NCBI GenBank assembly: GCA_034520665.1
Contig: JAXHNJ010000001.1
Coordinates: 258,579-322,578, forward strand
Source of the DNA: Patescibacteria group bacterium
Lineage (GTDB): Bacteria; Patescibacteriota; Patescibacteriia; JAXHNJ01
Direction: 5' to 3'
DNA: 64,000 bases
Part shown: positions 440-16,258 of the stretch, piece after piece
Layout: every line of letters begins with the position of its first letter
How positions within the stretch are numbered: position 1 is the stretch's first letter
Translations under genes and position numbers: made by a program
Notes under the pieces: model-generated
Seen by the model: only the letters and a program-made list of their open reading frames with translations
Databases searched by the model: none
What the model was told of the DNA's origin: nothing

Positions 440-470
440 AAAAGAAAATATAAATTAATCTGGATGACGA

Positions 471-650
471 TTTTCAGGATTTTTTGAGAAAAGGGGAGTA
501 GGAGAAGAGGTTTTTTTATTGGTAAAAAAAATGGTAAACTATAAACAGTATCGGATTAATATAATGGTTTAATAAAACTTCGTATAATAAACAAATTTGA
601 GGTGATTATACGAAATCAATTCGTATAATTACGAGTTATCGGAAATAATT
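471..650 (+). promoter_or_regulatory. Conserved ~180-bp upstream module (Rep-L) copy 1, containing the perfect palindrome TTATACGAA-ATCAA-TTCGTATAA and -35/-10-like hexamers
   Basis: Near-identical copies at 471-650, 2820-2990, 5783-5925 and 9218-9395. Each lies immediately upstream of a + strand ORF (674, 3010, 5994, 9413). Confidence 0.6.
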
Positions 651-673
651 TTTTATAACTTAAACCAACTATT

Positions 674-1138
674 ATGAATAATCAACAAGATTTGACAATT
701 TTATTAGAAGAGACTTTTCTCAACATTAGAGTTGCAATATTATTAGAAACACCTAGCGGATTTGTTTTTGAGAAATCAAAAGACGGATATATATTTTTAT
801 TGGGCGGAAGAGTTAAATTAAATGAAACAACCCAAGAGGCAGCCTCAAGAGAAATGTTTGAAGAATTAAAATTGGAAAATATAGACATTGAGATGATTTC
901 GGTTATCGAGAATTTTTTTTCAACAGCTGATAATAAAAATATCCACGAAATTAACTTTGTTTATAAAGCAACTCTTCCGCAGTCCATTGATTTAAGTATT
1001 TTTACATCGGACAATGGCAATAACGGTTATTGTTATATTAAAATGGATAAATTTGACAAGCATGATATCAGACCAAAGATTATTAAGGAATTTCTCAAAA
1101 ACAAAAAATCATTTGTACATCTAATAACCCGCGAATAA
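674..1138 (+). CDS. hypothetical protein (154 aa)
   Basis: ORF directly downstream of Rep-L copy 1; no recognisable motif. Confidence 0.4.
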   Translation: MNNQQDLTILLEETFLNIRVAILLETPSGFVFEKSKDGYIFLLGGRVKLNETTQEAASREMFEELKLENIDIEMISVIENFFSTADNKNIHEINFVYKATLPQSIDLSIFTSDNGNNGYCYIKMDKFDKHDIRPKIIKEFLKNKKSFVHLITRE

Positions 1139-1146
1139 AAATTACA

Positions 1147-1292
1147 TCCGATAACAAAGGATATGAGGTTCAAGAAATTCGGCACAAAATATTACCCAAA
1201 GGATGCCAAATTTCTTTCTCTCAAATTTACAAAAATTCAAAATTAATATTCAAAGGTATTTTTGTAAACATCGCATATCCAGAAACGTTATA
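1147..1292 (+). repeat. attC-like imperfect palindromic cassette-boundary repeat
   Basis: 5' arm GATAACAAAGGATATGAGGTTC, inner inverted repeat TTTACAAAAAT/ATTTTTGTAAA, 3' arm CATATCCAGAAACGTTAT. Starts about 10 bp after the stop codon of the preceding ORF. Confidence 0.55.
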
Positions 1293-1378
1293 ATAAATTT
1301 TGAAATAAGCCAAAAAGCCAATGAAGCAAAAAGCCCCATTCGATAAATTAATAAACTTTAATTATTTTTATAAATAAT

Positions 1379-1996
1379 ATGGAAAAGAAAATTCAGATAT
1401 TTATTATTCATGGTGGAATGACTTTCAAAAACAAGACAGACTATTTGCATTATTTAAAAACCAGAAAAATTTTAATTGAGAAAAAAATCCGTTGGACTGA
1501 TGAATTTTTAAAAAAGAATTTAGATAATAATTTTGAAATTATCAAACCACGTATGCCTTTGCAAGATAATGCCAAATATGAAGAATGGAAAATTCATTTT
1601 GAAAGACATATTCCTTGTTTGAAGAATAACATTATATTAATCGGTTCATGCTTAGGAGGAATTTTTCTCGCAAAATACCTGTCTGAAAATAAATTTCCTA
1701 AGAAAATTCTTTCAATTTACTTAATAGCGACTCCCTTTGATGGTTCAAACAGAAAATATATCTCAGGAAAGTTTAATTTAAAATCGGACTTGTCTTTATT
1801 GGAGAAAAATTCCAAAAATCTATATCTAATGTTTTCTAAAGACGATGATGTTGTTCCAGTTTCTCATGCTGAAAAATTCAGAAAAAAACTAAAAAATGCA
1901 AATATAGTAATTTACGAAAGTAAAAATGGCCATTTCAATGTATCTGAATTTCCTGAAATAATAAAAATGATTAAAACAGATGTTAAAAAGAAGTAG
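1379..1996 (+). CDS. alpha/beta-fold hydrolase-like protein (205 aa)
   Basis: IIHGG oxyanion-hole-like motif and a GSCLGG nucleophile-elbow-like motif; family assignment uncertain. Confidence 0.4.
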   Translation: MEKKIQIFIIHGGMTFKNKTDYLHYLKTRKILIEKKIRWTDEFLKKNLDNNFEIIKPRMPLQDNAKYEEWKIHFERHIPCLKNNIILIGSCLGGIFLAKYLSENKFPKKILSIYLIATPFDGSNRKYISGKFNLKSDLSLLEKNSKNLYLMFSKDDDVVPVSHAEKFRKKLKNANIVIYESKNGHFNVSEFPEIIKMIKTDVKKK

Positions 1997-2049
1997 GTCT
2001 TCTTGCTGTTTCTCTATGACGGCTTATTTCAAAACTCTGAAATTTTTCT

Positions 2050-2598
2050 TTGGAACGTTGCACTAAATTTCAGCCCTTCGGGGAATATAACAAGGATTTA
2101 GAAGTTTCGTTCGGTTTCACCTCACTACAACCAAATTTTGCTTCCTCTATTGGTAAAAATAAGGAAGTCGGCAAAACTTCTCATACACGCGAACGTTGGC
2201 TGACATTCATTTTTATCAATATGCAAACACGTGAAGAAACAAAATCTTTTCTCGAAAAAAAATATCCAGAAATTATGAATTCTACTGGTAAAAATTGGGA
2301 TGTAAAAGATGATAAACTAAAAGAGCGGGTATTAGAAAGGTTGACTGATTATTTTCACCCGATAATTGTCAAAAACTTAAAGTCCATTGAAAATACTTTA
2401 GGAAGAGTGAATCAGCGTCGCGAGAATTTTACATTCTTATTTATAGGCGCACTTTTAGGTGTCGTAGGTGGCTTAGTTGCAAATATATTGCATGATTTAC
2501 TAATAAGATTTTCACTAAAATATTATATTATTATCGCTTCAATTATTTTTTTAGCGGTACTTTTGTCTAGTCTTTTATATATTAACTATAAAAAATAA
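2050..2598 (+). CDS. hypothetical membrane protein (182 aa)
   Basis: Two C-terminal hydrophobic helices; no catalytic motif seen. Confidence 0.35.
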   Translation: MERCTKFQPFGEYNKDLEVSFGFTSLQPNFASSIGKNKEVGKTSHTRERWLTFIFINMQTREETKSFLEKKYPEIMNSTGKNWDVKDDKLKERVLERLTDYFHPIIVKNLKSIENTLGRVNQRRENFTFLFIGALLGVVGGLVANILHDLLIRFSLKYYIIIASIIFLAVLLSSLLYINYKK

Positions 2599-2674
2599 CA
2601 TGTCTATACAAAATAACAAAATATTGAATGAATTTCTGGAATATATTAAAAAAAAGTGAACGGCAGCTAACAGC

Positions 2675-2990
2675 GTGTATGAGGTTCAAGAAAAAGTGCG
2701 TTAATAATTTGAAAGAAAACGCTACGAGGGACGCTGCGCTTTCGCTCCACTCCGCTTCGCTCCGCAAAACATCAGATATAGGCAAACCTTGCGCCAGGCC
2801 TCATTTCTTACCAAGAGGATTTTCAGGATTTTTTGAGAAAAGGGGAGTAGGAGAAAAGGTTTTTTTATGGGTAAAAAAAATGGTAAACTATAAACAGTGT
2901 CGGATTATATAATGGTTTAATAAAACTTCGTATAATAAACAAATTTGAGGTGATTATACGAAATCAATTCGTATAATAACTAGTTGTACG
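2675..2990 (+). repeat. attC-like repeat (AACAGCGTGTATGAGGTTC ... CAGATATAGGCAAACC) fused to Rep-L copy 2
   Basis: Sequence identity to the other boundary repeats. The ORF-track CDS 2628..2912 lies inside this repeat and is judged spurious. Confidence 0.55.
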
Positions 2991-3009
2991 AAATTGTTCT
3001 AATTTTCTA

Positions 3010-3249
3010 GTGGTACCTATAGATTTTGATGTGTCAGTAAACAGATACCTGTCAATAGGGTATTTAGCAAAAAAAGAAAGTGCGGAGTTGAAACATTCGT
3101 TGTGGGCATTACAAAGTCCCGAAAACCTAAAAAAACATCATAAAGTTTTTGAGGAGAAATTTGAGTACTTCCGAAAAGTAGGACATAAGGCAAATGTTAA
3201 CGCGGTGAAAGAGTGGTGGGATCAAAAACTTAAGGAATTAAAAAATTAG
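3010..3249 (+). CDS. hypothetical small protein (79 aa, GTG start)
   Basis: ORF downstream of Rep-L copy 2. Confidence 0.3.
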   Translation: MVPIDFDVSVNRYLSIGYLAKKESAELKHSLWALQSPENLKKHHKVFEEKFEYFRKVGHKANVNAVKEWWDQKLKELKN

Positions 3250-3489
3250 AACAACATCGCACAACACCAAATATCTGGCTTGAAAATTTTTCAGTTATTA
3301 GAAAAAACAAGGAGTGAAAAATTTCCGCGCCTAAATTTCGCACTTTTCCGTTTAGTGGTAATTTAGAGTATAATTAATTTAACAATATAATCAGAATATC
3401 AAAGTTTTTAGCACATAAACCAAAGCGCGAAACTTCAGATATTCGGATACGTTATACGCAATTCAGAATTTTATTTTCAAACAATCACA

Positions 3490-3966
3490 ATGATAAAAAT
3501 AATATATGCAACAATTGAAGATTATGATGACTTTCTTGATGTATTCAAGGAGATTGAAGAATATCATAGAGTAAATGCTTCTTGGAAATTTCAAAAACCT
3601 AAACCTGAATTATTTCCAAGAGATTATTTTCATAAAGTAATTGAAGATGAAAATGGTATATTTTTTTTAGCCAAGGATAATACTAAAATTGTTGGTTATT
3701 TAACAGCTTTTGAAGAAAAATCTCCTGATAGGTCCATGTTAAAACTGAGAAAATATATACAGATAGATGATTTATCTGTAAGAAGCGATTATAGAAAAAA
3801 AGGTATCGGTACTTTACTAATGGATAAACTTGAAGAATTGGCTAAAAAAAATAAAATCTATGAAGTGGAGCTTAATGTATGGTGTTTTAACAAAGGTGCA
3901 ATAAAGTTTTATGAAAATAAAGGATATGAATCATTTACTCAGAAAATGAGGAAAGTTTTAAAATAA
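3490..3966 (+). CDS. GNAT family N-acetyltransferase
   Basis: Motif A (R/Q-x-x-G-x-G/A) seen as RKKGIGTLLM, and an FYENKGY C-terminal motif typical of the GNAT fold. Confidence 0.65.
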   Translation: MIKIIYATIEDYDDFLDVFKEIEEYHRVNASWKFQKPKPELFPRDYFHKVIEDENGIFFLAKDNTKIVGYLTAFEEKSPDRSMLKLRKYIQIDDLSVRSDYRKKGIGTLLMDKLEELAKKNKIYEVELNVWCFNKGAIKFYENKGYESFTQKMRKVLK

Positions 3967-4121
3967 AATTTTGAACTTCTCGCTATCGCTCCGTTCGGCT
4001 CGCTTAACAGAAGTATATGCGGTTTGCTCGTTGCCCTTTGCTTTCCCAAATTCTTCACCACGTTTGAAATTTACCTTAAGCCCGATATTAGATCTAATTT
4101 ACAAAACAATTTTTAAATTAT

Positions 4122-4952
4122 ATGGAAAAAAATCTAGAACAATCACAATCTACTAAAAAAATGGAAAAGCCGGAAGATTGGCTGCCAGGGGGGACTGAGC
4201 AAGAACAATATCTCAAAGAACATAAGGAATGGCGGGGTTTAGAAAAACGATTAGGGCAACCGAGGATATTAAATAATGTTTATTTCCCGGAAATTTTAGC
4301 TTGGATTCAAGAAGAATTTAAAGATAATCCTGATGCTTTTTCTTATTTCGAGGCAGGCTGTGGCCACGGAAATGATTTTCGAACCATAAGAAAAGAGCTT
4401 AAGGCTAGAGGCCGCTATCTCGGCGTTGATATGAGTAAGGCAGAAATCATTCACGGGATGAAATTTTATAAAGACGCGGAGGAAGCAAGAAAATTATTTG
4501 CTCAAGGTGATCTTCGTAATTTAAGACATGTTAATATTTGGGATAGGGGAAAAAGAGATTTTTCTCAACCTGTGGAAATTAAAGATGGCGAATTTGATCT
4601 TATCTATATGGAGGCGGTGTTACACGGACTTGGTTATAGTAAAAAAACCTTTCAAGAGAAAAAGGAATCAGCCCAACAGATGCTTAATGAATTATATCGT
4701 ATTTGTAAAGCTGGAGGAAAATTTTTTGGACGAGCCTCCATATTTGGCTCCACCATTACAAAAGAAAAACAATTTGAACTTCTGCGCAAGACAAATAATT
4801 GGCGCTTCATTCCTGAAGCTGAAGAATTTAAAGAAATACTTAAAAAAGCAGGGTTTACAAATATTAAAGGGGCATTGACTCCACATGAAAAAGCAAAAGA
4901 GGATCCAAATAAAAAAGATATTCTGCGATTTTCTTTTTTAGCTGAAAAATAA
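4122..4952 (+). CDS. class I SAM-dependent methyltransferase
   Basis: Motif I EAGCGHGND, then an acidic residue at the end of beta-2 (LGVDMS). Confidence 0.6.
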   Translation: MEKNLEQSQSTKKMEKPEDWLPGGTEQEQYLKEHKEWRGLEKRLGQPRILNNVYFPEILAWIQEEFKDNPDAFSYFEAGCGHGNDFRTIRKELKARGRYLGVDMSKAEIIHGMKFYKDAEEARKLFAQGDLRNLRHVNIWDRGKRDFSQPVEIKDGEFDLIYMEAVLHGLGYSKKTFQEKKESAQQMLNELYRICKAGGKFFGRASIFGSTITKEKQFELLRKTNNWRFIPEAEEFKEILKKAGFTNIKGALTPHEKAKEDPNKKDILRFSFLAEK

Positions 4953-4985
4953 TTTTTTCAGATTAAAAAATGTATTTTGCAAACA

Positions 4986-5090
4986 GTACATAACAAGGTA
5001 TATCTGGTTTCGCTTCTCCTAAGGTTGTCCCTTGATATAAATTTAATACTTCAGATATACGCGAACGTTAATTGCAATTTAGTTTAGGAC
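4986..5090 (+). repeat. attC-like boundary repeat (ATAACAAGGTATATCTGG ... CAGATATACGCGAACGTTAAT)
   Basis: Outer arms are reverse-complementary. An identical copy sits at 8345-8449 inside the segmental duplication. Confidence 0.55.
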
Positions 5091-5134
5091 TTTCTGACAT
5101 AAAATTTATATAATACATAACCCATTTTTTTCTT

Positions 5135-5608
5135 ATGAAGTTTAGAAAATTTAAGAAGAGTGATATTAGACAGATTGCAAAAATTAAGAATTCTGTTTTT
5201 AGTAGTTTCAATAAATCAGAATATTTTGAAAAAGGAACCGTTTCAAAATATTTAAATTACACCAATTCAAAAAAGTCAGACAAAGAACTCCTTGAAGCAT
5301 TTAAGATAACTAAGGATTCTATTTTTTATGTTGCTGAAGAAAATGATAAAATTTTCGGATATATCAAAGGAAGAAAAAATAGAATCGGGAATTTGTTTGT
5401 TCTTGGTCAAAACCATAAAAAAGGGATTGGTAGAAAATTAGTTAATTTATTTGAAAAAGAAGCAGAAAAACAGAACTCTAAAGAAATTAAGATTCACTCT
5501 TCAATTTATGCAGTTCCTTTCTATCAAAAAAGGGGTTATAAGAAAACTACTGGAATTAGAAATCTTCATGGCTTGAAGATTCAACCAATGAAAAAAGTCC
5601 TAAACTAG
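5135..5608 (+). CDS. GNAT family N-acetyltransferase (paralog 1 of 2)
   Basis: HKKGIGRKLV motif A. 98% identical to the ORF at 8494..8967. Confidence 0.65.
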   Translation: MKFRKFKKSDIRQIAKIKNSVFSSFNKSEYFEKGTVSKYLNYTNSKKSDKELLEAFKITKDSIFYVAEENDKIFGYIKGRKNRIGNLFVLGQNHKKGIGRKLVNLFEKEAEKQNSKEIKIHSSIYAVPFYQKRGYKKTTGIRNLHGLKIQPMKKVLN

Positions 5609-5993
5609 ACTTCTTCGAAATTTTTTCAGAATTCCTCGACCCCGCTGCGCTCTCGCCTATGGCTCGGGGTAATTAACAGGATTTTAACGGAAAAATACTC
5701 GGCTCGCATTTTCCCAAATCGCCTACGGCAAAACTTCTCTAAATCCTGAAGTTGTGCAAGACCCCATTTCTTGCCAAGAGGATTTTCAGGATTTTTTGAG
5801 AAAAGGGGAGTAGGGGAAGAGGTTTTTTATTGGTAAAAAAAATGGTAAACTATAGACAGTATCGGATTATATAATGGTTTAATAAAACTTCGTATAATAA
5901 CGAGTTAAGTGAAATTGAGAATTTGTCCTATGAGATTTAAATGGGCACGATTTTTTCCGAAAACTTTATATCACTACATACTTTTATTAATTT

Positions 5994-6470
5994 ATGATGG
6001 ACATAATCAAAATAAGCGAAGATTTCGCAAAAAAAGAATATGCAAAGCATGATGAACTTCACCAATGGAATCATGTTGAAGATGTGATGAATGTGGCTTT
6101 GAAATTATCCGAGTTTCATCCAGAAGCAAATTTAGAAATTTTAAAACTTGCTGTTATCTTTCATGATATTAGTTATGAACAATATGAAACTCATGTTGAA
6201 GAGTCCATGAAAGTAGCAGAAAAATTTCTAAAAGAGCAGGATTATCCGGAAGATAGAATCAAGAAAGTTTTGCAAGTGATGATTTCTCATTCTGGCCCTC
6301 ACAGAAGAAAACTCGGTGAAGCAAAAATGATTGAGGGAAAAATCATTTATGATTCTGATAAATTCCATCTTGCAAAAACTAGAGAGGGATTTGAAAAATA
6401 TTTTGATAGATTTTATCTGGATGAAACTCGTGATATGATTAAAAAAACGTGCCCTGAATTCTTTAAATAA
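5994..6470 (+). CDS. HD-domain phosphohydrolase
   Basis: H...HD motif (HDELHQWNHVED ... IFHDISY). Confidence 0.55.
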   Translation: MMDIIKISEDFAKKEYAKHDELHQWNHVEDVMNVALKLSEFHPEANLEILKLAVIFHDISYEQYETHVEESMKVAEKFLKEQDYPEDRIKKVLQVMISHSGPHRRKLGEAKMIEGKIIYDSDKFHLAKTREGFEKYFDRFYLDETRDMIKKTCPEFFK

Positions 6471-6708
6471 ATGTAAACTTGACGGACAAATTCTCAACTT
6501 GCTCACTATCGTTCGCACCACGCTGCGCTCTCACTTCGTTCGACCCTCATTTAACAAGGGATAAAAGGAAAATTGCTCGGCTCGCAATTTTCCCAAATTT
6601 TCTCCACTACGTTCTGAAAACTTCTTTTATCCCTGATGTTATATGAAATAAATTTTGGCGCGCTAGAAAAAAACCTTAATAAACAAATTCCCCCTAAGTA
6701 TTATTAAC

Positions 6709-7368
6709 ATGAAAAAATCTAAACTTCTCTGGTATATTTTAACAATAGTCCCAATCGCATTATTAATTCTTGGATATATTTTTCCCTCATCATTCTTTGG
6801 AAGTCAAGAGGCAATTAGAGATTTTGTTTCTCAATTTGGAATTTTTGCCCCTCTTGCCTTCATTGTGCTTCAAATCCTGCAAGTTGTAGTAACGCCCCTT
6901 AGTCATTATACTGTTTCAATAGCGGGCGGATTTATTTTTGGAACATGGCAAGGTTTTATTTATAATTGGATTGGTAGAGTAATTGGAACAGCAATCGCTT
7001 TTTATCTTGCTCGAATTTTTGGAAGAAAAATTATTAAGCATCTTGTTAAAAAAGAAACTATCCAAAAATACGATTATATATTTGAAAAAGGAAAACTCTT
7101 ACTGTTCTTAGCATATTTCTTGCCATTGTTCCCAGATGATGAACTTTCATATCTTGCAGGACTTTCAGCAATTAGTCCAAGAATCTTTTTACCTTTAATG
7201 GCGATTGGGCATATTAGTGGAAGTTTAAGTTTAGCTTACATCGGCAACGGGATACAATCTTTCAAAGAGCCGATGTTTATAATACTCTCATTAATAACTT
7301 TAATTGGGGGAATTTGGTTTGCATGGCATTATCAAAAAGTTAAAAATAATGCTAATACCAAAGTGTAA
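6709..7368 (+). CDS. DedA/TVP38/TMEM64 family membrane protein
   Basis: Multi-TM protein with a G-x-x-x-FG...F-x-P...S-x-AG-like signature (GGFIFG ... LAGLS). Confidence 0.6.
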   Translation: MKKSKLLWYILTIVPIALLILGYIFPSSFFGSQEAIRDFVSQFGIFAPLAFIVLQILQVVVTPLSHYTVSIAGGFIFGTWQGFIYNWIGRVIGTAIAFYLARIFGRKIIKHLVKKETIQKYDYIFEKGKLLLFLAYFLPLFPDDELSYLAGLSAISPRIFLPLMAIGHISGSLSLAYIGNGIQSFKEPMFIILSLITLIGGIWFAWHYQKVKNNANTKV

Positions 7369-7627
7369 GATGCGCGCCAAAATTTATTTCACAAAACGGG
7401 CGGGCAAGGAGTTAGAAGAACAAGCTAGAAAAAATCTTAAAAGAGAATTAGCAATGTTGTCGTAAAAATTTTTCTTAACATCAACTAATACTGTGTATCT
7501 GGTTCCACAAATGAGAAATAATTGATTATTTTTTACATTCTTGGTTGCCCTTTTACAATTTTATAAAAGAGAAAGGCCGAGTCCCGCAAATCTGCGAAAC
7601 CCGGCCGAATGGATGGGGGCGGGGCTT

Positions 7628-7798
7628 TCAATACCAGCCCGCGTCTCCTGCTTCCTTAATTTGCTGCGCCTTGGTCTTTACTTCCTGAAGAGCCTTAAGC
7701 ACCTTTGGGTCGTCCTTGTACTTCTCATCGAGTTGGTTGAGGAGATACAGGATTTCCCCTGCTGCCGTGGATGCTCCTACTCCGCTAATCATATTCAT
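7628..7798 (-). CDS. small hypothetical protein (56 aa) with strong Shine-Dalgarno sequence, on a GC-rich insert
   Basis: Minus-strand ORF MNMISGVGASTAAGEILYLLNQLDEKYKDDPKVLKALQEVKTKAQQIKEAGDAGWY, preceded by GGAGGTG. Local GC about 50% against about 30% in flanks. The overlapping + strand ORF 7541..7903 looks like a translation artefact. Confidence 0.35.
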   Translation of the reverse strand: MNMISGVGASTAAGEILYLLNQLDEKYKDDPKVLKALQEVKTKAQQIKEAGDAGWY

Positions 7799-8095
7799 TG
7801 CGCACCTCCAATGTTCACGACATATTATCCTAGCAGATTATGCCCTGCCTGTCAAGCTAACAAATCTTTAAAAATTGTAAAAATCCCTAAAGTTAGGGTA
7901 TAATAATAAAGAATTTCTCATTTGTTCCACCTAAATTCTCATTTCGTATTGTGCTGGCGCTCTGCGCAATTTTATCACCTACATACACTCGTGACTTCGC
8001 ATACGCATGTCTGTTAGATGAAATAATAAAAAAATTCTTAACTATTGATAAATAATAAAATTTAACAATAATATTAACACTAGCAATACAAACTT

Positions 8096-8311
8096 ATGAA
8101 AAATTTTGAAAAAAACATTGGCCAAGGAGAAAGTTTATTAGAATTAGCCGCAAAAAAACTTAATTTAGATCCAAAAAACACCTCGTTAAATGAAGTAGAG
8201 GCAGTTATGCTTGGATTGCCAAAAGAAAGTTCCGTTTATGAGGTTGAAAAAGCAAAAGAGGATCCAAATAAAAAAGATATTCTGCGATTTTCTTTTTTAG
8301 CTGAAAAATAA
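8096..8311 (+). CDS. hypothetical protein; the last 20 aa are identical to the C-terminus of the methyltransferase at 4122..4952 (chimeric ORF at a duplication junction)
   Basis: C-terminus KAKEDPNKKDILRFSFLAEK is shared. The duplication breakpoint falls inside the ORF. Confidence 0.3.
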   Translation: MKNFEKNIGQGESLLELAAKKLNLDPKNTSLNEVEAVMLGLPKESSVYEVEKAKEDPNKKDILRFSFLAEK

Positions 8312-8493
8312 TTTTTTCAGATTAAAAAATGTATTTTGCAAACAGTACATAACAAGGTATATCTGGTTTCGCTTCTCCTAAGGTTGTCCCTTGATATAAA
8401 TTTAATACTTCAGATATACGCGAACGTTAATTGCAATTTAGTTTAGGACTTTCTGACATAAAATTTATATAATACATAACCCATTTTTTTCTT

Positions 8494-8967
8494 ATGAAGT
8501 TTAGAAAATTTAAGAAGAGTGATATTAGACAGATTGCAAAAATTAAGAATTCTGTTTTTAGTAGTTTCAATAAATCAGAATATTTTGAAAAAGGAACCGT
8601 TTCAAAATATTTAAATTACACCAATCCAAAAAAGTCAGACAAAGAACTCCTTGAAGCATTTAAGATAACTAAGGATTCTATTTTTTATGTTGCTGAAGAA
8701 AATGATAAAATTTTCGGATATATCAAAGGAAGAAAAAATAGAATCGGGAATTTGTTTGTTCTTGGTCAAAACCATAAAAAAGGGATTGGTAGAAAATTAG
8801 TTGATTTATTTGAAAAAGAAGCAGAAAAACAGAACTCTAAAGAAATTAAGATTAACTCTTCAATTTATGCAGTTCCTTTCTATCAAAAAAGGGGTTATAA
8901 GAAAACTACTGGAATTAGAAATCTTCATGGCTTGAAGATTCAACCAATGAAAAAAGTCCTAAACTAA
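8494..8967 (+). CDS. GNAT family N-acetyltransferase (paralog 2 of 2)
   Basis: Differs from 5135..5608 by three substitutions (S45P, N104D, H130N). Confidence 0.65.
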   Translation: MKFRKFKKSDIRQIAKIKNSVFSSFNKSEYFEKGTVSKYLNYTNPKKSDKELLEAFKITKDSIFYVAEENDKIFGYIKGRKNRIGNLFVLGQNHKKGIGRKLVDLFEKEAEKQNSKEIKINSSIYAVPFYQKRGYKKTTGIRNLHGLKIQPMKKVLN

Positions 8968-9007
8968 ACTTCTTCGAAATTTTTTCAGAATTCCTCGACC
9001 CCGCTGC

Positions 9008-9084
9008 CTGCCCGCCATAGTCTACGGCATCAGGCCTTGGCTCGCCCGCCTGAGTTGCTCAGGCAAGTCGGGCGGCAGGCGGGC
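9008..9084. repeat. 77-bp GC-rich palindromic insertion (REP/MITE-like) present in only one copy of the duplicated repeat
   Basis: CTGCCCGCC...GCCTGAGTTGCTCAGGC...GGCAGGCGGGC has terminal and internal inverted repeats. The paralogous position 5647/5648 is uninterrupted. Confidence 0.6.
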
Positions 9085-9412
9085 GCTCTCGCCTATGGCT
9101 CGGGGTAATTAACAGGATTTTAACGGAAAAATACTCGGCTCGCATTTTCCCAAATCGCCTACGGCAAAACTTCTCTAAATCCTGAAGTTGTGCCAAACCC
9201 CATTTTTTGCCAAGAGGATTTTCAGGATTTTTTGAAACAAGGGAAGTAGGAGAAGAGGTTTTTTTATTGGTAAAAAAAATGGTAAACTATAGACAGTGTT
9301 GGATTAATATAATGGTTTAATAAAAATTCGCATAATAAACAAATTTGAGGTGATTATACGAAATCAATTCGTATAATAACGAGTTATCGGAAATAAAAAT
9401 AGTAAAATTTTT

Positions 9413-9973
9413 ATGGGTAATAAAAAAATCTTCACAATCAGCTCTGATTTTGAATTAATTAAAAAACCAAAATGGTTAGATGGCTTTCGTATTAAGCACG
9501 ATAAACCTTTTCCATATCACGTAACTTTAAAAACATGTACATACTTTGATATTGATAATTTTAAAAATTTAAAAAAAGACTTAAGTGGTATTGTTAAAAA
9601 ATATAGCGAGATCAAGGTTATATTTAACAAACTTTTTATAAGTCGCTCTTCAAAGGGCGAATGTATTATGATAAAAGCAGATAATAATAAAAAGCTAAAT
9701 GAACTCCAGAAGGAAATTGTGAAAAAGTTTTCAAAATATGGGAATTATATAGCGAAAAAATACGAAAAATTCGAGAAAAGTTTTATTCCCCATATTACTA
9801 TCGCGCGACATCTTTCATCAGAACAATTGATAATTGCAAAAAAGGATTTAGGGAAAAAACTATTTTGTGAAGCTGTAGTCAAAGGGCTTTCTTTAATGAT
9901 AGTGGAAAATAATACTGATGAAGAATGGTTAAACCACAACAATAAAAGTTATTACAAGTTACAGAACAAATAG
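9413..9973 (+). CDS. 2H phosphoesterase superfamily protein (LigT/2'-5' RNA ligase-like)
   Basis: Two H-x-T/S-x motifs (YHVTLK and PHITIA) about 90 aa apart. Confidence 0.55.
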   Translation: MGNKKIFTISSDFELIKKPKWLDGFRIKHDKPFPYHVTLKTCTYFDIDNFKNLKKDLSGIVKKYSEIKVIFNKLFISRSSKGECIMIKADNNKKLNELQKEIVKKFSKYGNYIAKKYEKFEKSFIPHITIARHLSSEQLIIAKKDLGKKLFCEAVVKGLSLMIVENNTDEEWLNHNNKSYYKLQNK

Positions 9974-10157
9974 AATTTTACTATTTTTACCTTCCGATAA
10001 CAGCGTGTATGCGGTTCGGACTTTCCCTGAAAACCCTCTCCCATATTTTTGCTCCCGTTGGTCGCAAAAACATCGCATACGCTGGAACGTTAAGTGAAAT
10101 TGCGGAGGGGCGCCTAATACGATACTTTTTATAAGTGAGTGAATTTACAATACTATT

Positions 10158-10832
10158 ATGACAACAAAACTTCGCGAACCAGATGAAGAAAATTATGTCT
10201 TTACCGAGGGTATTGATTATTCAAAAACAGAAAAAAAATTTATCTGGGGAACTGGTGATAAAGACACTCTGGAGCTTCTGAATGATATTAAAATTCGAGG
10301 CAAGTGGCTAAACCTTGCCGCTGGTGATGGACGTTACAATTTGAATTTGTTGGAAAAAGTTAATTCAGTTGTTGCTTCAGATATTGATGAAGGTGCGCTT
10401 GGCAAATTGAAACAAAACACACCTAACGAACTAAGAGAAAAACTACAAACAGAAATTTTTGATATAACTAAACCATTTCCATTTGAAGATGAATCATTTG
10501 ACGGTGTGTTTTGCACTGGGACATTACATCTTTTTCCAACTGAAATTTTGCAGCAAATTATTTTAGAGATTGATAGAATTCTAAAATCCAATGGCAAACT
10601 GATTATAGACTTTGCAACTGACATCAAACGTATTCTGCCAGATGGCAAACTTTATATCAGAAAATCTGAACCTCAATACACTGCCGAAGAAGCCGCAAAA
10701 TTTCTCAGAGAATTATTGCACAATTATCAAATTCAAATTGTAGAATCAGAAGTTCCAGAGGAAGAAATTAAGACGCGAGGTTTTGTTTATAGATTTAGTT
10801 GTAAATTCATTTTACTAACAGCAGATAAATAA
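10158..10832 (+). CDS. class I SAM-dependent methyltransferase
   Basis: Motif I LNLAAGDGRYN, then VVASDID (acidic residue at the end of beta-2). Confidence 0.6.
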   Translation: MTTKLREPDEENYVFTEGIDYSKTEKKFIWGTGDKDTLELLNDIKIRGKWLNLAAGDGRYNLNLLEKVNSVVASDIDEGALGKLKQNTPNELREKLQTEIFDITKPFPFEDESFDGVFCTGTLHLFPTEILQQIILEIDRILKSNGKLIIDFATDIKRILPDGKLYIRKSEPQYTAEEAAKFLRELLHNYQIQIVESEVPEEEIKTRGFVYRFSCKFILLTADK

Positions 10833-11172
10833 TGACGGCGACCCCCACAACTCTCGCCAGCCCTTCGGGACGTTGCACTAAATTTTTGCCCTTCGGGACA
10901 TATAACAAGGGATATGAGGTTACGAAGTTTTGCAGACTTCTTTACTCAAATTCGCCTACGGCGAACTTCTCATAAGCCCGATGTTAAATGAAATTTTGCC
11001 TTGAAATGTGAAGTGAAAAATATTCGTGCTATTAAAAAAAGATAGTTCGTAATTTCAAAATTTATTTTATTTATCGGCAAAACTTCACTTAACACTGTGT
11101 ATCTGGTTCCGTAAAAGAGAAAAATTAAATAATTCTCTATTTTTAAAAGCCTTTTTTCAATTTTTTTACAAA

Positions 11173-11200
11173 GAAAAAACCAGTTGTTAGGGACAACTGG
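11173..11200 (-). terminator. Rho-independent terminator for the minus-strand gene 11217..11591
   Basis: Minus strand reads CCAGTTGTCCCTAACAACTGG followed by a T-run: an 8-bp stem plus TTTTTTT. Confidence 0.55.
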
Positions 11201-11216
11201 AAAACCCTTATTTTGT

Positions 11217-11591
11217 TTAGAGGACTGCGTAGTACGGCATTCCGCCAGGCAGGGCTGACCACATGGCACGCGGCATAAGGCATTTGGCCTTGCCGATCGC
11301 GGTGCCGAGTTGAAAGAGCTGGTCCATGCGTTGGTGCAGATCTGTCCACTGATTGCCATGCTTGTCGTTACAGGCATTCAAAAAGGACGTGCCGCCACCA
11401 CCGGACATCTTGAACTCGTCGGGTAATTCATCCAGTATTTCCTCAATCTCGGCCTTATGGCTTTCCAGTCTGTCGGTATGAAAACCAACATTCTGGGTTA
11501 TACCCTCGGCTTTGACATAATTGTTGGTTTCCTCATCTTCTTTGAACAGACAGTCTATGAAGATTGCATTTACGCGTTCGGGATCAATCAT
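11217..11591 (-). CDS. hypothetical protein (124 aa), compositionally foreign (higher GC), minus strand
   Basis: ORF has its own terminator and sits inside a split boundary repeat. GC about 47%. No motif recognised. Confidence 0.45.
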   Translation of the reverse strand: MIDPERVNAIFIDCLFKEDEETNNYVKAEGITQNVGFHTDRLESHKAEIEEILDELPDEFKMSGGGGTSFLNACNDKHGNQWTDLHQRMDQLFQLGTAIGKAKCLMPRAMWSALPGGMPYYAVL

Positions 11592-11907
11592 CTTCGTTCC
11601 TCCTTTGTTAAGGTTATCAGCAAAATTACTGATTATTAAGTATGGCAGATTTCTTATTTCATGTCAAGCTTGGCGACCAAAAAATTGAAAAAAGGGCTTT
11701 AATAGCTTTAATATAAGGTAAATTATTATTTTTTCTCTTTTACTTCACCCAAATTGTTCGTTCCTCGCAAATTCTCATAATCCTAACGTTATGTGAAATA
11801 GCCAGAAATTTCTTAATTATTTTTTAAGATTTTTTTGGCAATTTATTTCACGTCGAACATAACTTGTGGTATAATTTAGTCAGTTTAATTAATTAACCAA
11901 TAAAACT

Positions 11908-12207
11908 ATGTCAGAAAAATTCGAAGGCAATTTGCCACCTCAAGAGCAAAAAGAAGGTTATTCAGCAGATTTCGTAGCCAAGGTAAAAGAAGTATTTCCA
12001 GATTGGGATCGCATGAATCAAGCGCTGGAATCTGGTAGTGAGTGGGTCGGTCGTTATCTTGATGATTCGCGCGGTTTTTCAATGAAGCCAGATGAAATTG
12101 TCCAAGCTCTTGAAGGCGGCGATCAAGAAAAAGTTCTTGAGGCGGCAAGGAAAGCCAAAAAGATTGATGAGCTTTATAAAGAATGGTCTGAATCACGGGA
12201 AAAATAA
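11908..12207 (+). CDS. hypothetical acidic protein (99 aa)
   Basis: Preceded by an extended -10 promoter: TTCACG, 17 nt, TGgTATAAT at about 11850-11878. The + strand frame looks more protein-like than the overlapping minus-strand frame. Confidence 0.4.
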   Translation: MSEKFEGNLPPQEQKEGYSADFVAKVKEVFPDWDRMNQALESGSEWVGRYLDDSRGFSMKPDEIVQALEGGDQEKVLEAARKAKKIDELYKEWSESREK

Positions 12208-12256
12208 ATTGCCAAAAAATAATAATAAGGAATAGAAATTTCTGTCAACATCACAT

Positions 12257-12400
12257 AACAGCGTGTATCTGGTTCGGCAAATTTGACACAATTAGATTCA
12301 AAAGGAATGTCAAATCTACCTCTCCCAAATTTCGCAAAAAAATACTATTTTTAAAGGAATTTTTGCGAAACTTCAGATACACGCAAACGTTATACGCAAT
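12257..12400 (+). repeat. attC-like boundary repeat, the best-preserved copy
   Basis: Outer arms ATAACAGCGTGTATCTGGTTCGG ... CTTCAGATACACGCAAACGTTATACG. Two inner inverted repeats: AAATTTGACA/TGTCAAAT and TTTCGCAAAAA/TTTTTGCGAAA. Confidence 0.6.
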
Positions 12401-12589
12401 TCAAAAAATATTTTTTTTATAAGGAATTTTGACAGGCTTTTTAAAAAGGGGAATAAATTTGTTTTTTTATTAATTAGAAAGGGGTAAATGGTGTTTTCTC
12501 CGCTATCGCTCCGAAAACGATTTATTATTGGAAAAAGACAAAAAGTTTTATATACTTAAATTAGTTTTAACTTATTAAAGGATTAAAAT

Positions 12590-15337
12590 ATGAGTGAAGA
12601 ATTACTACAAAGAGGACTAACTAAAAAAGGAATTACATTCATAGATTATGAATTTTTTCCGTTACACTCAACGACCTTAAAACAATATAAAAAGTTAAAA
12701 ATAATTCCTAATAAAGATTATGATAAATATGAAATTAGAAAACCTGACGGGCTTTTAGTAGACAGAGGAAATAAATCAAAGCCGAAAGTTGTTACAGTTT
12801 TGGAATACAAAAAACCTTCTGAATTTCAAACAGATAAACAAAAAAGAGAAGCGATTGAACAATGCAATGATTTGTGTCAAGAGCTTGAAGCAAAAATAGG
12901 AATTATTACAGACGGAATTGTTACTTATTGGATAAATCCAAACCACGCAGATAAAAATAACAAATACAAAGATAGAACAACTGGGAAGAAGCGAAGTTTT
13001 TCTTATATCTTAAATGATGATAAGCAAAGATTACAAAAGAAGTTTTTCATTAAAGAGAACGATAAAAAAGATATTTCAAAATTGAATAATGAAACAAGAG
13101 AAACTTACAGATTAGTTAAAAGAATTTTAGAAGAAACAAATAATAAAAATTCTGTTTTGAAAGCAACAGAAAAAACAGACCCAACCCCTCTCGCGAGAAG
13201 TGTTTGGCAAAGTATTTACATAAGCACAAAAGATAATCCAACAGCTTGTCTTTATAATGTTGTTGAGATTTTTATCTTTAAGTTTCTGAGTGATTTAGGA
13301 GTTTTAAAAGGAGTTAATAGTTTTGATTATTTATTGAAACTTTACAAAACAGAAGATAGTAAAACAGTTTTAAAACACTATGCTAAAACTTGCAGAGAAG
13401 AAATAAGAAATTTATTTGAAGCGGGAGATGACGGGACAACAATAATTAATGGAACTATTTTTGTAAATAAAGACGGAAGCCCTGTTTTATCACAAGCGAC
13501 TTTATTTAAAGACACTATTGAAAAATATGCAAAGTTTGGAGATTTAAAAAATATTGACAAGGGATTTAAAACAAAATTGTTCGAAACATTTTTGAAGCAG
13601 AGTAAGGACAAAAGTAAGTTAGGACAATTTTTTACACCGAGAAAAGTTGTTAAGGGAATTGTTGAAATGGCTGATGTGGATAAAGCGGAATTTATATGCG
13701 ACCCATTTTGCGGTGTTGGTGGTTTTCTTTTAGAGCCATTTCAAATATCTCAAAATTTGAAAAATAAATTTATTCCAAAGAATAATGAAATAAATCCGCC
13801 TGTAAAACTTTTAGGATATGATACAGGAAGAGAAGATAACGACGAACAAAAGAGGACTATTATTTTAGCAAAGGCGAATATGCTTATTTATTTGTCTGAT
13901 TTAGTCGAAAAAAATTCTACATTAAACGAGGAATTTTCAAAAATAATAAATAATACTTTCCACTTTTTATCGGATAGTAATCTTGGAACACTAAAAGAAA
14001 CTGAAAGATTTGAAAGAAATGAGGATAAGCCTGATTTAATTATTACCAATCCTCCATATATCACAAGCGGAGTAACTACAATAAGAAAACAGATTGAGGA
14101 AGATGGTTTAACTGATTATTATAAAAATAGTGGAAAGGGAATGGAAGGTTTATGCTTAAAATGGATAATAAAAAATTTGAAAAGAAAAGGACAAGCATTT
14201 ATTGTTTTGCCAGATAGTATTTTTAATGTTTTTGCCAATAAAGTTTTAAGAGATGAAATAAAAAAGAATTGTTATATTAATTGTATTATATCTTTACCCG
14301 CAAAAACTTTCTTTAATACTCCAAAGAAAACTTATGTTTTAGGAATTACAAAAAAAGATTGTGATGAAGATGAATGTGAAAATCTTAAACAGGATTTTCC
14401 TGTATTCACTTATTTAGTTTCTAATATCGGGGAAACATTAGATATTAACCGATTCGAAATTCCTGAAAATGATTTGGATAATGCGAAGAATTTGTTTAAT
14501 CAATTTAAAGGAAGTCCAAATAATTTTCAAACAGATGACTCACGATGTAAATTACAACCTATTGAAAAATTTGAAAATGAGAAATATTGGATAATTGATA
14601 AATGGTGGAGTAAAAAAGAAAAAATAGAAATTGAAATTGAAGAAGAAGATGAAAGTTTAACTATTGATGAATTTAAAGATCAAATTGAAAAAACAAAGGA
14701 AAAATTAGGAGAATTAGAATGGGTGGCAGATAAAACAAAAGAGAGAAAATATAAAACCAAAATGATGTATGTAACGGATGATAAGATAAATAAAAATAGG
14801 AAAGAAGAAGGAATTTTTGAAGCAGAAAAAGGAAATGCAAAATACACAAAAAAATATATGCACGACCATAAAGGTGAGTTTCCTGTTTATTCTTCTCAAA
14901 CTTCTAATTTAGGCGAGATAGGAAGCATAGACACCTATGATTATGAAGAAGAATGTTTTACTTGGACAACCGATGGAACTTATGTTGGAACTGTTTTTTA
15001 TAGAAATGGTAAGTTTTCAATAACCACTCATTGCGGAATTTTAAGAGTTAAACCAGAATACAAAGATAAAGTTGATTTTGAATATTTGAATTTTATCTTA
15101 AATCAAACACTCCCTAATTATAAATTAGGTGAAGGTTCTAATAAAAGATTAGGGACTGAAAGAATGAAGGAAATTCAAATAGAAATCCCAATAAACAAAA
15201 ACGGAGAATTTGACTTAGATAAACAAAAAGAAATTGCTGAAAAGTATAAGAAAATAGAAGAAATCAAGGAAAAACTTAAAGACAATTATGAAAAGATGAT
15301 AAATTCAAAAGTTCAGATTATTGAAGCAGAAGAATAA
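12590..15337 (+). CDS. Type IIG (MmeI-like) single-chain restriction-modification enzyme: N-terminal PD-(D/E)xK nuclease, gamma-class N6-adenine methyltransferase, C-terminal target-recognition region
   Basis: N-terminal KPDGLLVD...VLEYKK matches PD...ExK. Methyltransferase motif I FFTPRKVV...DPFCGVGGFL. Motif IV ITNPPY. The 915-aa length matches MmeI architecture. Confidence 0.7.
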   Translation: MSEELLQRGLTKKGITFIDYEFFPLHSTTLKQYKKLKIIPNKDYDKYEIRKPDGLLVDRGNKSKPKVVTVLEYKKPSEFQTDKQKREAIEQCNDLCQELEAKIGIITDGIVTYWINPNHADKNNKYKDRTTGKKRSFSYILNDDKQRLQKKFFIKENDKKDISKLNNETRETYRLVKRILEETNNKNSVLKATEKTDPTPLARSVWQSIYISTKDNPTACLYNVVEIFIFKFLSDLGVLKGVNSFDYLLKLYKTEDSKTVLKHYAKTCREEIRNLFEAGDDGTTIINGTIFVNKDGSPVLSQATLFKDTIEKYAKFGDLKNIDKGFKTKLFETFLKQSKDKSKLGQFFTPRKVVKGIVEMADVDKAEFICDPFCGVGGFLLEPFQISQNLKNKFIPKNNEINPPVKLLGYDTGREDNDEQKRTIILAKANMLIYLSDLVEKNSTLNEEFSKIINNTFHFLSDSNLGTLKETERFERNEDKPDLIITNPPYITSGVTTIRKQIEEDGLTDYYKNSGKGMEGLCLKWIIKNLKRKGQAFIVLPDSIFNVFANKVLRDEIKKNCYINCIISLPAKTFFNTPKKTYVLGITKKDCDEDECENLKQDFPVFTYLVSNIGETLDINRFEIPENDLDNAKNLFNQFKGSPNNFQTDDSRCKLQPIEKFENEKYWIIDKWWSKKEKIEIEIEEEDESLTIDEFKDQIEKTKEKLGELEWVADKTKERKYKTKMMYVTDDKINKNRKEEGIFEAEKGNAKYTKKYMHDHKGEFPVYSSQTSNLGEIGSIDTYDYEEECFTWTTDGTYVGTVFYRNGKFSITTHCGILRVKPEYKDKVDFEYLNFILNQTLPNYKLGEGSNKRLGTERMKEIQIEIPINKNGEFDLDKQKEIAEKYKKIEEIKEKLKDNYEKMINSKVQIIEAEE

Positions 15338-15625
15338 ACTTTTGAATAAGGAGTTTTGAAAAATGGAATTCACCCCTAACCCCCGCCCGCCTCGCTACGC
15401 GAAGCGTTGCGGGCAGGCCTCTGCCCAAAATTCAAAACGGGAAAAATCAAATTTATAAGAATTAAAGAAAGTCTATCATGAAGAATAAGAACGAAAAATA
15501 TTTTTTGAACTCACTCCGCTTTGCTCCGCAAAACATCAAATATAGGCAAACCTTGTGCCAGACCTCATTTCTTGTCAAGAGGATTTCCAGGACTTTTTAA
15601 GAAAATGAAATTAATTTATTAAAAT

Positions 15626-16258
15626 ATGATCCTAAAAATATTATACAATAATAGGGCTAAAGAAGGTTTTAAAGAAGGTTGGGGATTTTCTTGCTTGATT
15701 GAATCTATTAAGGAAAATAAGAAAATCTTGTTTGACACTGGGGCTGACTTTGAAACTCTTAGTTTTAACGCTCAAAAACTAGGGGTAAATTTTAAAAATA
15801 TTGACAAGGTAGTTATTTCCCATGACCATGATGACCACACCGGCGGCTTGGCAGGAGTTTTAAAGGAAAATAATAAGGTAAAAGTTATCTGGCCGAAAAA
15901 TGAAAATAGTTTTAGAATTATTAGCGGTATTTTTTCAACCGGCTCTTTGAAAGCAGCCATAGACTTAAAAGAGCAGTCTTTGTTTTTGGCAACAAAGAAA
16001 GGTTTAGTCATTATAGTCGGTTGTTCTCATCCCGGAGTGGATAAAATTCTTCAAAGAGTAAAAGAGGTTAGGTCTTTAAAAAATAATAAAAAGATTTACG
16101 CTATTATTGGTGGTTTTCACGGCTTTAATAAATTAGATGAATTAGAAGGAATTGAAGTTATTGGCGCTTGCCATTGTACGTCACATAAACAAGAAATTAA
16201 GAAGAAATTTCCTGATCAGTTTAAAAAAATAAGAGCCGGTGATATAATAAAATTATAA
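15626..16258 (+). CDS. metallo-beta-lactamase-fold hydrolase
   Basis: HxHxDH motif (ISHDHDDHTGG), and downstream His and Asp residues (GFHG). Confidence 0.6.
   Translation: MILKILYNNRAKEGFKEGWGFSCLIESIKENKKILFDTGADFETLSFNAQKLGVNFKNIDKVVISHDHDDHTGGLAGVLKENNKVKVIWPKNENSFRIISGIFSTGSLKAAIDLKEQSLFLATKKGLVIIVGCSHPGVDKILQRVKEVRSLKNNKKIYAIIGGFHGFNKLDELEGIEVIGACHCTSHKQEIKKKFPDQFKKIRAGDIIKL

Follow-up and report, generated by a model that had tools for sequence, protein, structure and literature searches.

The 64-kb window analysed here (contig JAXHNJ010000001.1 of a Patescibacteria group bacterium, assembly GCA_034520665.1, positions 258,579 to 322,578; "the window" always means this whole stretch) has a G+C content of about 33% and carries all of its sizeable genes on the + strand. 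From position 1 to about 15.6 kb it consists of small + strand genes, each of which is followed by an imperfect palindrome, and one of these palindromes, attC15 (Table 1), is the focal site of this report. The genes encode a NUDIX protein, an alpha/beta hydrolase, two kinds of GNAT protein, two methyltransferases, an HD phosphohydrolase, a VTT-domain membrane protein and a LigT-like phosphoesterase, together with several open reading frames (ORFs) that belong to no known family. Such a content of GNAT, NUDIX, methyltransferase and hydrolase genes is typical of integron cassettes. In total we count about 16 palindromic sites in the window, all on the + strand, one per gene and confined to this array, and they are built from an outer pair TAAC...GTTA, called the R box, an inner pair of 11 bp, the L box, and hairpins inside. 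We estimate a probability of roughly 80% that this repeat is an attC-type recombination site, with which each gene cassette of an integron-like array ends on its 3' side.

The original prediction, made from the DNA letters without database searches, had described the repeat as a two-tier inverted repeat, in which the 5' arm is the reverse complement of the 3' arm and a second inverted repeat lies between them. Both tiers are present at the focal copy: the arms CACATAAC-A-GCGTGTATCTG (12252–12271) and CAGATACACGC-AAAC-GTTATACG (12374–12396) are complementary overall, and the inner repeat is TTCGCAAAAA/TTTTTGCGAA. The details need amending in two respects. First, the 3' arm reads TTCAGATACACGC and not CCAGATACACGC, with a G.T wobble as the last pair and AAA unpaired between L' and R'. 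Second, the site holds three helices, as the hairpin at 12277–12320 was missing from the earlier description. The other copies that had been named with it (1147–1292, 9997–10105 and 4986–5090) are real and the arm variants cited for them are correct. Folding of the bottom strand, which had been proposed as a check, gave a clear result: as single-stranded DNA it reaches −27.2 kcal/mol at the focal site (z −6.06; 0 of 200 shuffles equal), with a G.T pair gained in the R box, three bulged T and a perfect 11-bp L box. The top strand folds with −25.2 kcal/mol (z −6.27). Copies with about 90% identity to the focal site over its full length occur in many loci of Patescibacteria and of metagenomes.

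The census of sites used a sequence-only weight matrix for each arm, with a threshold above the maximum obtained in the shuffled window. Applied to both strands of the 64 kb, it returned ten 5' arms and nine 3' arms, all of them on the + strand and within 1–15.6 kb; the arm matrices found no attC-like arms on the − strand or elsewhere in the window. A covariance model (R1) was built from short sites with the loop included, so that long sites score low, the focal site with 21 bits. It gave five strong matches in the window and weaker ones at long or decayed sites. The copy at attC8, which is absent from the seed, was matched at 6546–6649 with 46.9 bits (E 3.1e-8), and its bottom strand folds with a z of −6.9.

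For the search of relatives, a 22-nt degenerate pattern derived from the 3' arm was run on public collections. Viral contigs contained no match to this pattern, while metagenome contigs gave more than 120 loci among the matches listed, a lower bound, and species-representative genomes gave 64 matches, with both arms present at 54 of the 64 loci. Most pattern matches have a matching 5' arm 40–200 nt upstream, and in many of the 54 genome loci a single strand carries several sites, the maximum being 9 in 8 kb. Almost all hosts with a name belong to the Patescibacteria (Uhr-, Moran-, Kuenen-, Magasanik- and Saccharibacteria, Peri-/Peregrinibacteria, Gracilibacteria and Parcubacteria); eight further low-G+C assemblies are labelled "uncultured Gammaproteobacteria", a label for which we do not vouch. 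Genome matches without a 5' arm, such as those in Enorma, Nitrosotalea and Thermomicrobiales, mostly look like chance matches. The comparison set used below comprises 184 related loci (L003–L186), and some of their cassettes are common to several lineages of the candidate phyla radiation (CPR).

Co-variation of the arms was quantified over 233 distinct sites, in which the two arms were detected independently and each 3' arm was paired with the nearest upstream 5' arm without any use of complementarity. The L box pairs at 10.30 of 11 positions, compared with 8.07 when the partners are shuffled (sd 0.076, maximum 8.37 in 1000), and it is fully paired in 153 of the 233 sites. This bears out the earlier claim of selection on structure over sequence. 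Arm variants such as GCGTGTATCTG, CGGCATATCTG, GCGTGTATGAG, CGGCACATGCG, CCGAATATCTG, AGGGATAAAAG and others each have their perfect partner; the central TAT and the flanking G/C are near-fixed and the five pairs next to the R box vary freely. In a 24-sequence seed, changes on both sides occur at 7 of the 11 L-box pairs. RNAalifold predicts the L-box helix unaided, with double changes at 7 of 12 helix pairs. Among the internal hairpins, SL2 shows double changes at 5 of 8 pairs in the 147-nt class, and the co-variation of SL1 is compensatory by eye only, in a region where the alignment is ragged and alignment-based folding did not recover the hairpin. The outer AAC and GTT are 95–100% conserved and paired. 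The proposed reading as R''/L''–L'/R' is thereby upheld, with a near-invariant AAC...GTT, an L-box pairing that is kept through compensatory changes and a co-varying inner hairpin. The ends, likened in the earlier description to the integron core GTTRRRY and to the ends of Vibrio VCRs, have an R' consensus of GTTAYRYG, which is not strictly GTTRRRY.

The spacers between R and L do not vary in type: the 5' one is always A and the 3' one RWAC. This strong asymmetry, A opposite RWAC, becomes a G.T pair and a 3-nt bulge on the bottom strand, and the only invariant unpaired bases are these three on the L'-R' arm; extrahelical bases in L'' are confined to a minority of sites, for example the window site attC12. 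Site lengths range from 50 to 250 nt, with modes near 80–100, 120–150 and 190–200. Mismatches in the L box are G.T on the bottom strand in 70 cases versus 31 on the top strand (p 1.3e-4), and the bottom strand is the more stable one in 173 of the 233 sites. From wobble asymmetry and stability we infer that the folded strand is probably the bottom one. Two further observations concern the interior of the sites. Between both internal hairpins lies an unpaired linker, C(C/T)CACCCA(A/T)AT, which is conserved family-wide (12321–12330 and the equivalent positions in loci L003–L186). In the 147-nt class, both hairpin loops have nearly the same sequence (..TTAGATTCAAAAGGAAT..), as if a hairpin module had been duplicated.

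Breakpoint mapping covered 363 junctions. In 130 pairs with the same downstream and different upstream sequence, identity rises above background only past +3, and in 548 pairs with the same upstream and different downstream sequence it is down to background from +4. Both sets together place the exchange point within AAC|GTTA (−3 to +4), and the YRY of R' hence moves with the downstream cassette. Single cases can be followed between loci. The cassette that begins at G11788|TTATGTGAAATAGCCAG stands after an attC in the window and directly after an attI-like site in locus L134, with the homology starting at G|TT. The window site attC8 is identical in locus L130 up to GAT|GTTATA, where a different cassette follows; the sequence after the attC8 copy is there the leader that in the window follows the focal site. 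Cassettes are consequently discrete units bounded at AAC-G|TTA, and their order and neighbours differ among genomes.

The R'' box provides a further line of evidence, and the most telling one. It shows no partner-specific fit to the adjacent R' (6.28/8 vs 6.20/8 with shuffled partners). Compared with the start of its own cassette, however, the four outer bases of R'' match with a mean of 3.21/4, and 56 of 107 cassettes are perfect; the corresponding means are 2.47/4 with the adjacent R' and 2.46/4 when partners are shuffled (maximum 2.67; Wilcoxon p 6e-7). R'' therefore has its partner at the beginning of the cassette that it closes, in R' bases that lie hundreds of bases upstream. At the focal site, R'' CACATAAC complements GTTATGTG at 11788 (TTATGTG after G11788) at 8/8 positions and the adjacent R' at 6/8. 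At attC1, R'' CCGATAAC matches its own cassette start GTTATCGG (G635) at 8/8 and the adjacent R' at 5/8, and the same values, 8/8 and 5/8, are obtained at attC12. Such a pairing would result from a circular intermediate of the cassette, with the terminal G joined again to the TTAYRYG of that cassette, and it is the hallmark of integron cassettes.

A tblastn search detected recombinase matches at 29 related loci. At about 25 of the 29, a recombinase gene or fragment stands at one end of the array. The remaining matches were set aside: a weak and unrelated one in Enorma, and fragments that are flanked by sites or lie in the orientation of the sites. The gene is divergent from the array in 19 of 19 loci that hold its N-terminus, and transcription of the recombinase away from the array is the standard integron layout. 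The 13 full-length proteins have 264–308 residues; the catalytic R, K, HxxR, H and Y are preserved, and the C-terminus is ..IKSPL, as in integron integrases. Among solved structures, the best relative is VchIntIA (2a3v; 170 bits, E 5.5e-49), followed by archaeal XerA (134 and 131 bits) and XerD (89 bits). The alignment with VchIntIA falls into two pieces and skips IntI4 residues ~211–241. The NCBIfam integron integrase model TIGR02249 is also matched in two stretches, with 210–230 bits and below its cut-off of 265. The archaeal XerA model gives 203–234 bits at a cut-off of 220, which two of four proteins pass, and the XerC and XerD models give about 185 bits against cut-offs of 330–335, so the proteins are not XerC/XerD equivalogs. 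All 13 full-length recombinases are devoid of the additional domain of about 30 residues (I2 helix). An IntI1 sequence served as a probe only; the absence of the domain was confirmed independently against the deposited VchIntIA. The additional domain is a defining feature of IntI that detection pipelines require (PMC9668308), and the I2 helix is held to be the innovation that enabled single-strand recombination by reading the extrahelical bases (PMC7790495).

In 15 of the 16 loci examined, an attI-like site, TTCGCATA(T)AAAMSA|GTTAYRYGAAAT, lies 70–170 nt before the recombinase gene, and its TTCGYATAA motif occurs again upstream, once more in direct and once in inverted orientation. A second repeat family in the window ends exactly as these sites do (..CTTCGTATAAT..ATTATACGAA..ATTCGTATAATTACGA|GTTATCGGAAAT): direct and inverted TTCGTATAA motifs are followed by ACGA|GTTATCGGAAAT. 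The window contains four such attI-like modules. Each is bounded by G|TT on both sides, so that the attI-like region itself behaves like a small cassette, and the cassettes beginning at these modules have an R'' that is complementary to those starts. The modules may bring a promoter to distal cassettes. No recombinase gene or remnant was found beside any of the four copies.

Taken together, these data support the view that the locus is, functionally and architecturally, an integron cassette array and belongs to an integron-like system of a new variant. How a recombinase without the I2 helix could work on such sites may be sketched from the placement of its putative binding motif. TTC-NN-ATA occurs at four places, namely in L' (CTTCAGATA, CATCGCATA, CTTCTCATA), on the bottom strand of R' (TTCACATAA), in R'' and in the attI-like repeats. 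As a duplex, the attI-like site has the form of a normal core, in which 7–8 bp separate two inverted arms (TTCNNATAA). In the unfolded duplex of the attC-like site, the distance between L' and R' is 10 bp; once the bottom strand is folded, the R and L arms take the same inverted arrangement as in the attI-like core, with 7 nt (CACGC-T-G) versus 10 nt between them, three of which bulge. We propose that the bottom strand folds and that the duplex of R'/R'' and L'/L'' would then resemble an ordinary two-arm core site, close enough to the ordinary form for an I2-less enzyme to bind. The five freely co-varying L-box pairs next to the R box would act as the "central region", which need only pair, and the recombinase would cut the bottom strand at AA|C. 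The invariant bulge, and not extrahelical bases read by I2, would give the choice of strand and orientation, and it might also block a second strand exchange, in a manner comparable to that described for the folded CTX phage site on which Xer acts (PMC7790495). The two variable hairpins and the conserved CCCAAAT linker would fill the loop. Finally, the cassette would excise via a circle, and the circular junction of the focal cassette would read ...CAGATACACGCAAACG|TTATGTGAAATAGCCAG.

Extended to the whole group, this leads to the tentative and still somewhat doubtful proposal that Patescibacteria have their own widespread integron lineage, characterized by attC-type folded sites, an IntI-like enzyme whose I2 helix was lost or never present, a hairpin that mimics a duplex core and a fixed 3-nt bulge that replaces the extrahelical bases. 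If this is true, the I2-less lineage would be the pre-I2 stage of integron evolution that has long been sought, or else an independent solution to the recombination of single strands. It would also account for what standard tools report in such genomes, namely only orphan arrays, or "integron-type" recombinases that have no sites.

The same recombinase and the same attI-like sites can be read in another way, namely as double-strand modules of the Xer/dif type. The enzyme would here be the host dimer resolvase, the attI-like site its dif, the array a set of duplex-integrating elements in the style of IMEX (integrative mobile elements exploiting Xer) or pdif, and the hairpins would be incidental. 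A recombinase without the IntI-specific domain, which scores 203–234 bits with the XerA model and 210–230 bits with the IntI model, fits this picture, and so does the classical two-arm core of the attI-like duplex. Read as a duplex, the R''-L'' half likewise presents two inverted arms 7 bp apart, and in some single-Xer systems dif adjoins the xer gene. A duplex reaction has, however, no role for partner-specific compensatory change over 11 bp between arms that lie 40–200 nt apart. Additionally, the exchange is located at R' (duplex arms separated by 10 bp) and not at R'', and the wobble asymmetry points to one folded strand. The protein itself has an integron integrase as its best solved relative, down to the C-terminal ..SPL tail, and stays far below the XerC and XerD cut-offs. 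We regard the Xer/dif explanation as unlikely.

Still less probable is a role at the RNA level, in which each gene would have its own stabiliser in the 3' untranslated region, processing site or terminator and no recombination would take place. The sites do follow stop codons immediately, on the coding strand, their hairpins are stable, and co-variation alone cannot tell DNA from RNA. The mismatches, however, favour wobble on the non-coding strand (the 70 versus 31 given above), there is no T-tract, and terminator-like sites occur at the level of shuffles (8 found, 9.1 expected). Rfam gave no match at gathering thresholds in the 64 kb, nor at E values up to 1 in positions 1–16000, which also counts against an RNA role; no tRNA genes were found. 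Moreover, such a role does not account for exchange at AAC|GTTA, for an R'' that pairs with the start of its cassette or for a linked recombinase with its attI-like site. As for miniature inverted-repeat transposable or repetitive extragenic palindromic (REP)-like elements that have spread through intergenic regions, the terminal inverted repeats, the many copies and the whole-length conservation of the 147-nt class across genomes would suit them, but we consider them the least probable of all, as the sites have a single orientation, occur one per gene and only inside arrays, have arms that vary by compensatory change instead of being fixed, carry outer bases that belong to the neighbouring unit and are associated with a tyrosine recombinase and no transposase.

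Several points speak against the integron reading and are gathered here. No tyrosine recombinase is encoded in the 64-kb window, which starts inside the array, and the link between the sites and the I2-less recombinase is an apparent association in other loci. Deletion of the additional domain abolishes IntI1 activity, as cited from Messier and Roy (2001) in PMC7790495, and a folded-site reaction without this domain is accordingly unproven. The core-site model, with its arms and its 7/10-nt centre, is a reading of the DNA letters. Within the window, attC2, 3, 5, 7, 9, 14 and 16 are chimeric, half-sites or decayed, and one intact-looking site, the AT-rich attC6, folds no better than its shuffles. 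The stability bias toward the bottom strand could partly reflect base composition. Finally, neither the sites nor the junction pairs are independent of phylogeny, and for this reason the p-values are too optimistic.

Table 1. Positions of the focal site and its parts, of the other attC-like sites and of the attI-like modules in the window.
Feature	Position	Strand	Remarks
Focal attC-like site attC15	12252–12396	+	Arms, fold and comparison with relatives in the text
attC15 R''	12252–12259		CACATAAC
attC15 unpaired A	12260		
attC15 L''	12261–12271		GCGTGTATCTG
attC15 hairpin SL1	12277–12320		
attC15 conserved linker	12321–12330		TCTCCCAAAT
attC15 hairpin SL2	12331–12369		Stem halves TTCGCAAAAA (12331–12340) / TTTTTGCGAA (12360–12369)
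attC15 L'	12374–12384		CAGATACACGC
attC15 unpaired AAAC	12385–12388		
attC15 R'	12389–12396		GTTATACG; inferred crossover G12389|T12390
Cassette ended by the focal site	11789–12389	+	Leader 11789–11905, 99-aa ORF 11908–12207, attC15
attC1	1148–1294	+	After NUDIX gene 674–1138; 147-nt class
attC2	2084–2202	+	Chimeric: L'' matches attC7 L', L' matches attC3 L''
attC3	2664–2795	+	Degenerate/chimeric; 3' half mismatches 5' half; R' = CTTGCGCC
attC4	3258–3458	+	201-nt class; after 79-aa ORF 3010–3249
attC 5' half-site CTTAAC-A-GAAGTATATGCGG	4001–4075	+	Without matching 3' half; after GNAT gene 3490–3966
attC6	4987–5074	+	After methyltransferase gene 4122–4952; covariance model 64.2 bits, E 2.8e-12
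attC7	5670–5758	+	Partly decayed; after GNAT gene 5135–5608
attC8	6548–6645	+	After HD-domain gene 5994–6470; L box AGGGATAAAAG/CTTTTATCCCT paired 11/11
attC9	7482–8020	+	Long composite; arms 500 nt apart; small − strand gene-like insert in SL1 loop
attC10	8346–8433	+	Exact duplicate of attC6
attC11	9106–9194	+	Near-duplicate of attC7
attC12	9994–10096	+	After LigT-like gene 9413–9973; 2-nt bulge in L''; 65.9 bits (seed member)
attC13	10899–10990	+	Cassette without ORF; 59.8 bits (seed member); bottom-strand z −4.5
attC14	11086–11795	+	Composite: 5' arm 11086–11110, − strand ORF 11217–11591, linker CACCCAAAT and L'-R' 11740–11795
Degenerate 3' arm (CATCAAATATAGGCAAAC|CTTGTGCC)	15533–15559	+	Distal array end, after 915-aa methylase/specificity gene 12590–15337
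attI-like module B1 (..CTTCGTATAAT..ATTATACGAA..ATTCGTATAATTACGA|GTTATCGG)	466–642	+	G at 635
Further attI-like module	2814–2990		G2983; repeat family of B1
Further attI-like module	5792–5911		G5904; repeat family of B1
Further attI-like module	9214–9390		G9383; repeat family of B1

The array also shows signs of rearrangement. Matching halves connect attC2, attC3 and attC7, as the L' of attC2 pairs with the L'' of attC3 and its L'' with the L' of attC7, and the chimeric sites 2084–2202 and 2664–2795 point to rearrangement between site interiors. The sites 7482–8020 and 11086–11795 have related 5' arms, and their two arms, 500–700 nt apart, enclose a reverse-strand ORF of 56 aa (7628–7798) and of 124 aa (11217–11591; no Pfam match), respectively, with promoter-like and terminator-like signals of its own. 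In both cases, a small gene seems to have entered the loop of the site. Additionally, a segmental duplication, in which 4886–5185 equals 8245–8544 (100%) and which continues through 5135–5608 / 8494–8967 and 5647–5842 / 9083–9278, covers the end of the methyltransferase cassette, the GNAT cassette and the sites after them. The gene 12590–15337, which lies between the focal site and the degenerate distal 3' arm, encodes a fused N6-adenine methylase and type I specificity protein of 915 aa and may be a very large cassette. The next gene, 15626–16258, encodes a metallo-beta-lactamase fold with a match to the Anti-Pycsar Apyc1 family on record.

Promoter-like leaders at 11789–11905 and 12390–12480 (TTGGCA..TGTGGTATAAT; TTGACAGG..) begin exactly at G|TT, and such leaders recur at about 88–93% identity in more than 15 loci, before different genes. 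Cassettes of this array seem to carry their own promoters, which suggests an arrangement other than that of a complete integron, where a Pc promoter drives promoterless cassettes. A scan of the window for promoter consensus sequences stayed at chance level and gives the promoter-like leaders no support.

Outside the array, the window contains repeats of other kinds. At 30920–32143, just downstream of a LexA-like gene (30250–30861), tandem 149-nt units, three and a half of them at 31256–31707 and another at 31976–32122, interrupt a gene of the REP-associated/IS200-like tyrosine transposase type (HLHLL motif). Each unit copies a portion of the coding sequence and has a G+C-rich hairpin. Two and a half tandem 123-nt units at 32886–33182 precede a dinB-like gene (33125–34330), and each of them repeats the first 15–20 codons of this gene (MTSIILHIDMNSYFASCEQ). 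Dispersed direct repeats of 64–277 nt with 84–97% identity are present at 38766–39042 / 40472–40748, 36553–36731 / 37502–37680, 55501–55710 / 55992–56201 and 55722–55785 / 55837–55900; according to the arm matrices they are unrelated to the attC-like family.

Among known systems, the sites come closest to the attC of sedentary chromosomal integrons, such as the Vibrio cholerae repeats (VCRs) and the attC of aadA7. They share with these the R''-L''...L'-R' imperfect palindrome after each cassette gene, the conserved AAC...GTT, a structure that is kept more than the sequence, a loop of variable length, the G|TT crossover with the TTRRRY side in the next cassette and the signs of bottom-strand folding. 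Like the VCRs, they form a sequence family, here one that runs lineage-wide. They differ from canonical attC sites in that the consensus L box is perfectly paired over 11 bp without extrahelical bases. Instead, a fixed 1x4 asymmetric loop (the 3-nt bulge) lies between R and L on the L'-R' arm, which is the arm opposite to the one with the canonical extrahelical bases. Further differences are a loop in the form of a three-way junction with the conserved CCCAAAT linker and an R' consensus of GTTAYRYGAAAT. The cassettes, too, depart from those of chromosomal integrons, as many of them have promoter-like leaders.

The recombinase resembles IntI1 and VchIntIA in its best solved relative, in a score with the IntI model that is at or near the top, in the ..SPL tail, in its divergent orientation and in the attI-like site with repeated binding motifs. 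Unlike these enzymes, it has about 270 residues and no I2 domain of about 30 residues (PMC9668308, PMC7790495). Measured against a complete integron, an enzyme with the IntI domain is absent, and an attI together with a divergent array is found in related loci only. With about 16 attC-like sites and no integrase in 64 kb, the window looks like a cluster of attC sites lacking integron integrases (CALIN). It differs from one in that it starts inside the array, whose head may be cut off, and in that the recombinase of related arrays would fail standard IntI profiles. The absence of the I2 domain, the attI-like two-arm core and the folded site that would mimic a duplex core with an imperfect centre recall Xer/dif and CTX phage (PMC7790495), whereas cassettes of one gene each in long arrays, an exchange at GTT and a protein closer to IntI than to XerC/XerD do not, and nothing in the present data marks the locus as a chromosome terminus. 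The archaeal integrons (Ghaly et al. 2022, PMC9668308) are similar in that their arrays were found through metagenomes in uncultivated lineages with small genomes and mostly without an integrase. Archaeal IntIs are, however, reported with the additional domain and their attCs with the canonical fold (PMC9668308); this domain is absent from the CPR recombinases.

Published lists of phyla that host integrons omit the CPR (PMC9668308; PMC9024848), and we found no prior report of integrons or of these sites in this radiation in the literature searched, which does not span all journals. A 2026 study found that 97% of the contigs with "integron-type" recombinases have no detectable attC and suspected novel attCs (PMC13323075). 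The sites described here offer one concrete answer to such contigs, given that existing tools require the IntI-specific domain (PMC9668308). With regard to the I2 helix, direct proof of its role in the gain of single-strand recombination is lacking according to the authors who discuss it, because deletion of the domain kills IntI1 (PMC7790495). Natural attC-like hairpins, arrays and attI-like sites beside I2-less, IntI-like enzymes make this question testable with real partners. The finding would also extend integron-type gene capture to a large radiation of bacteria that is uncultivated.

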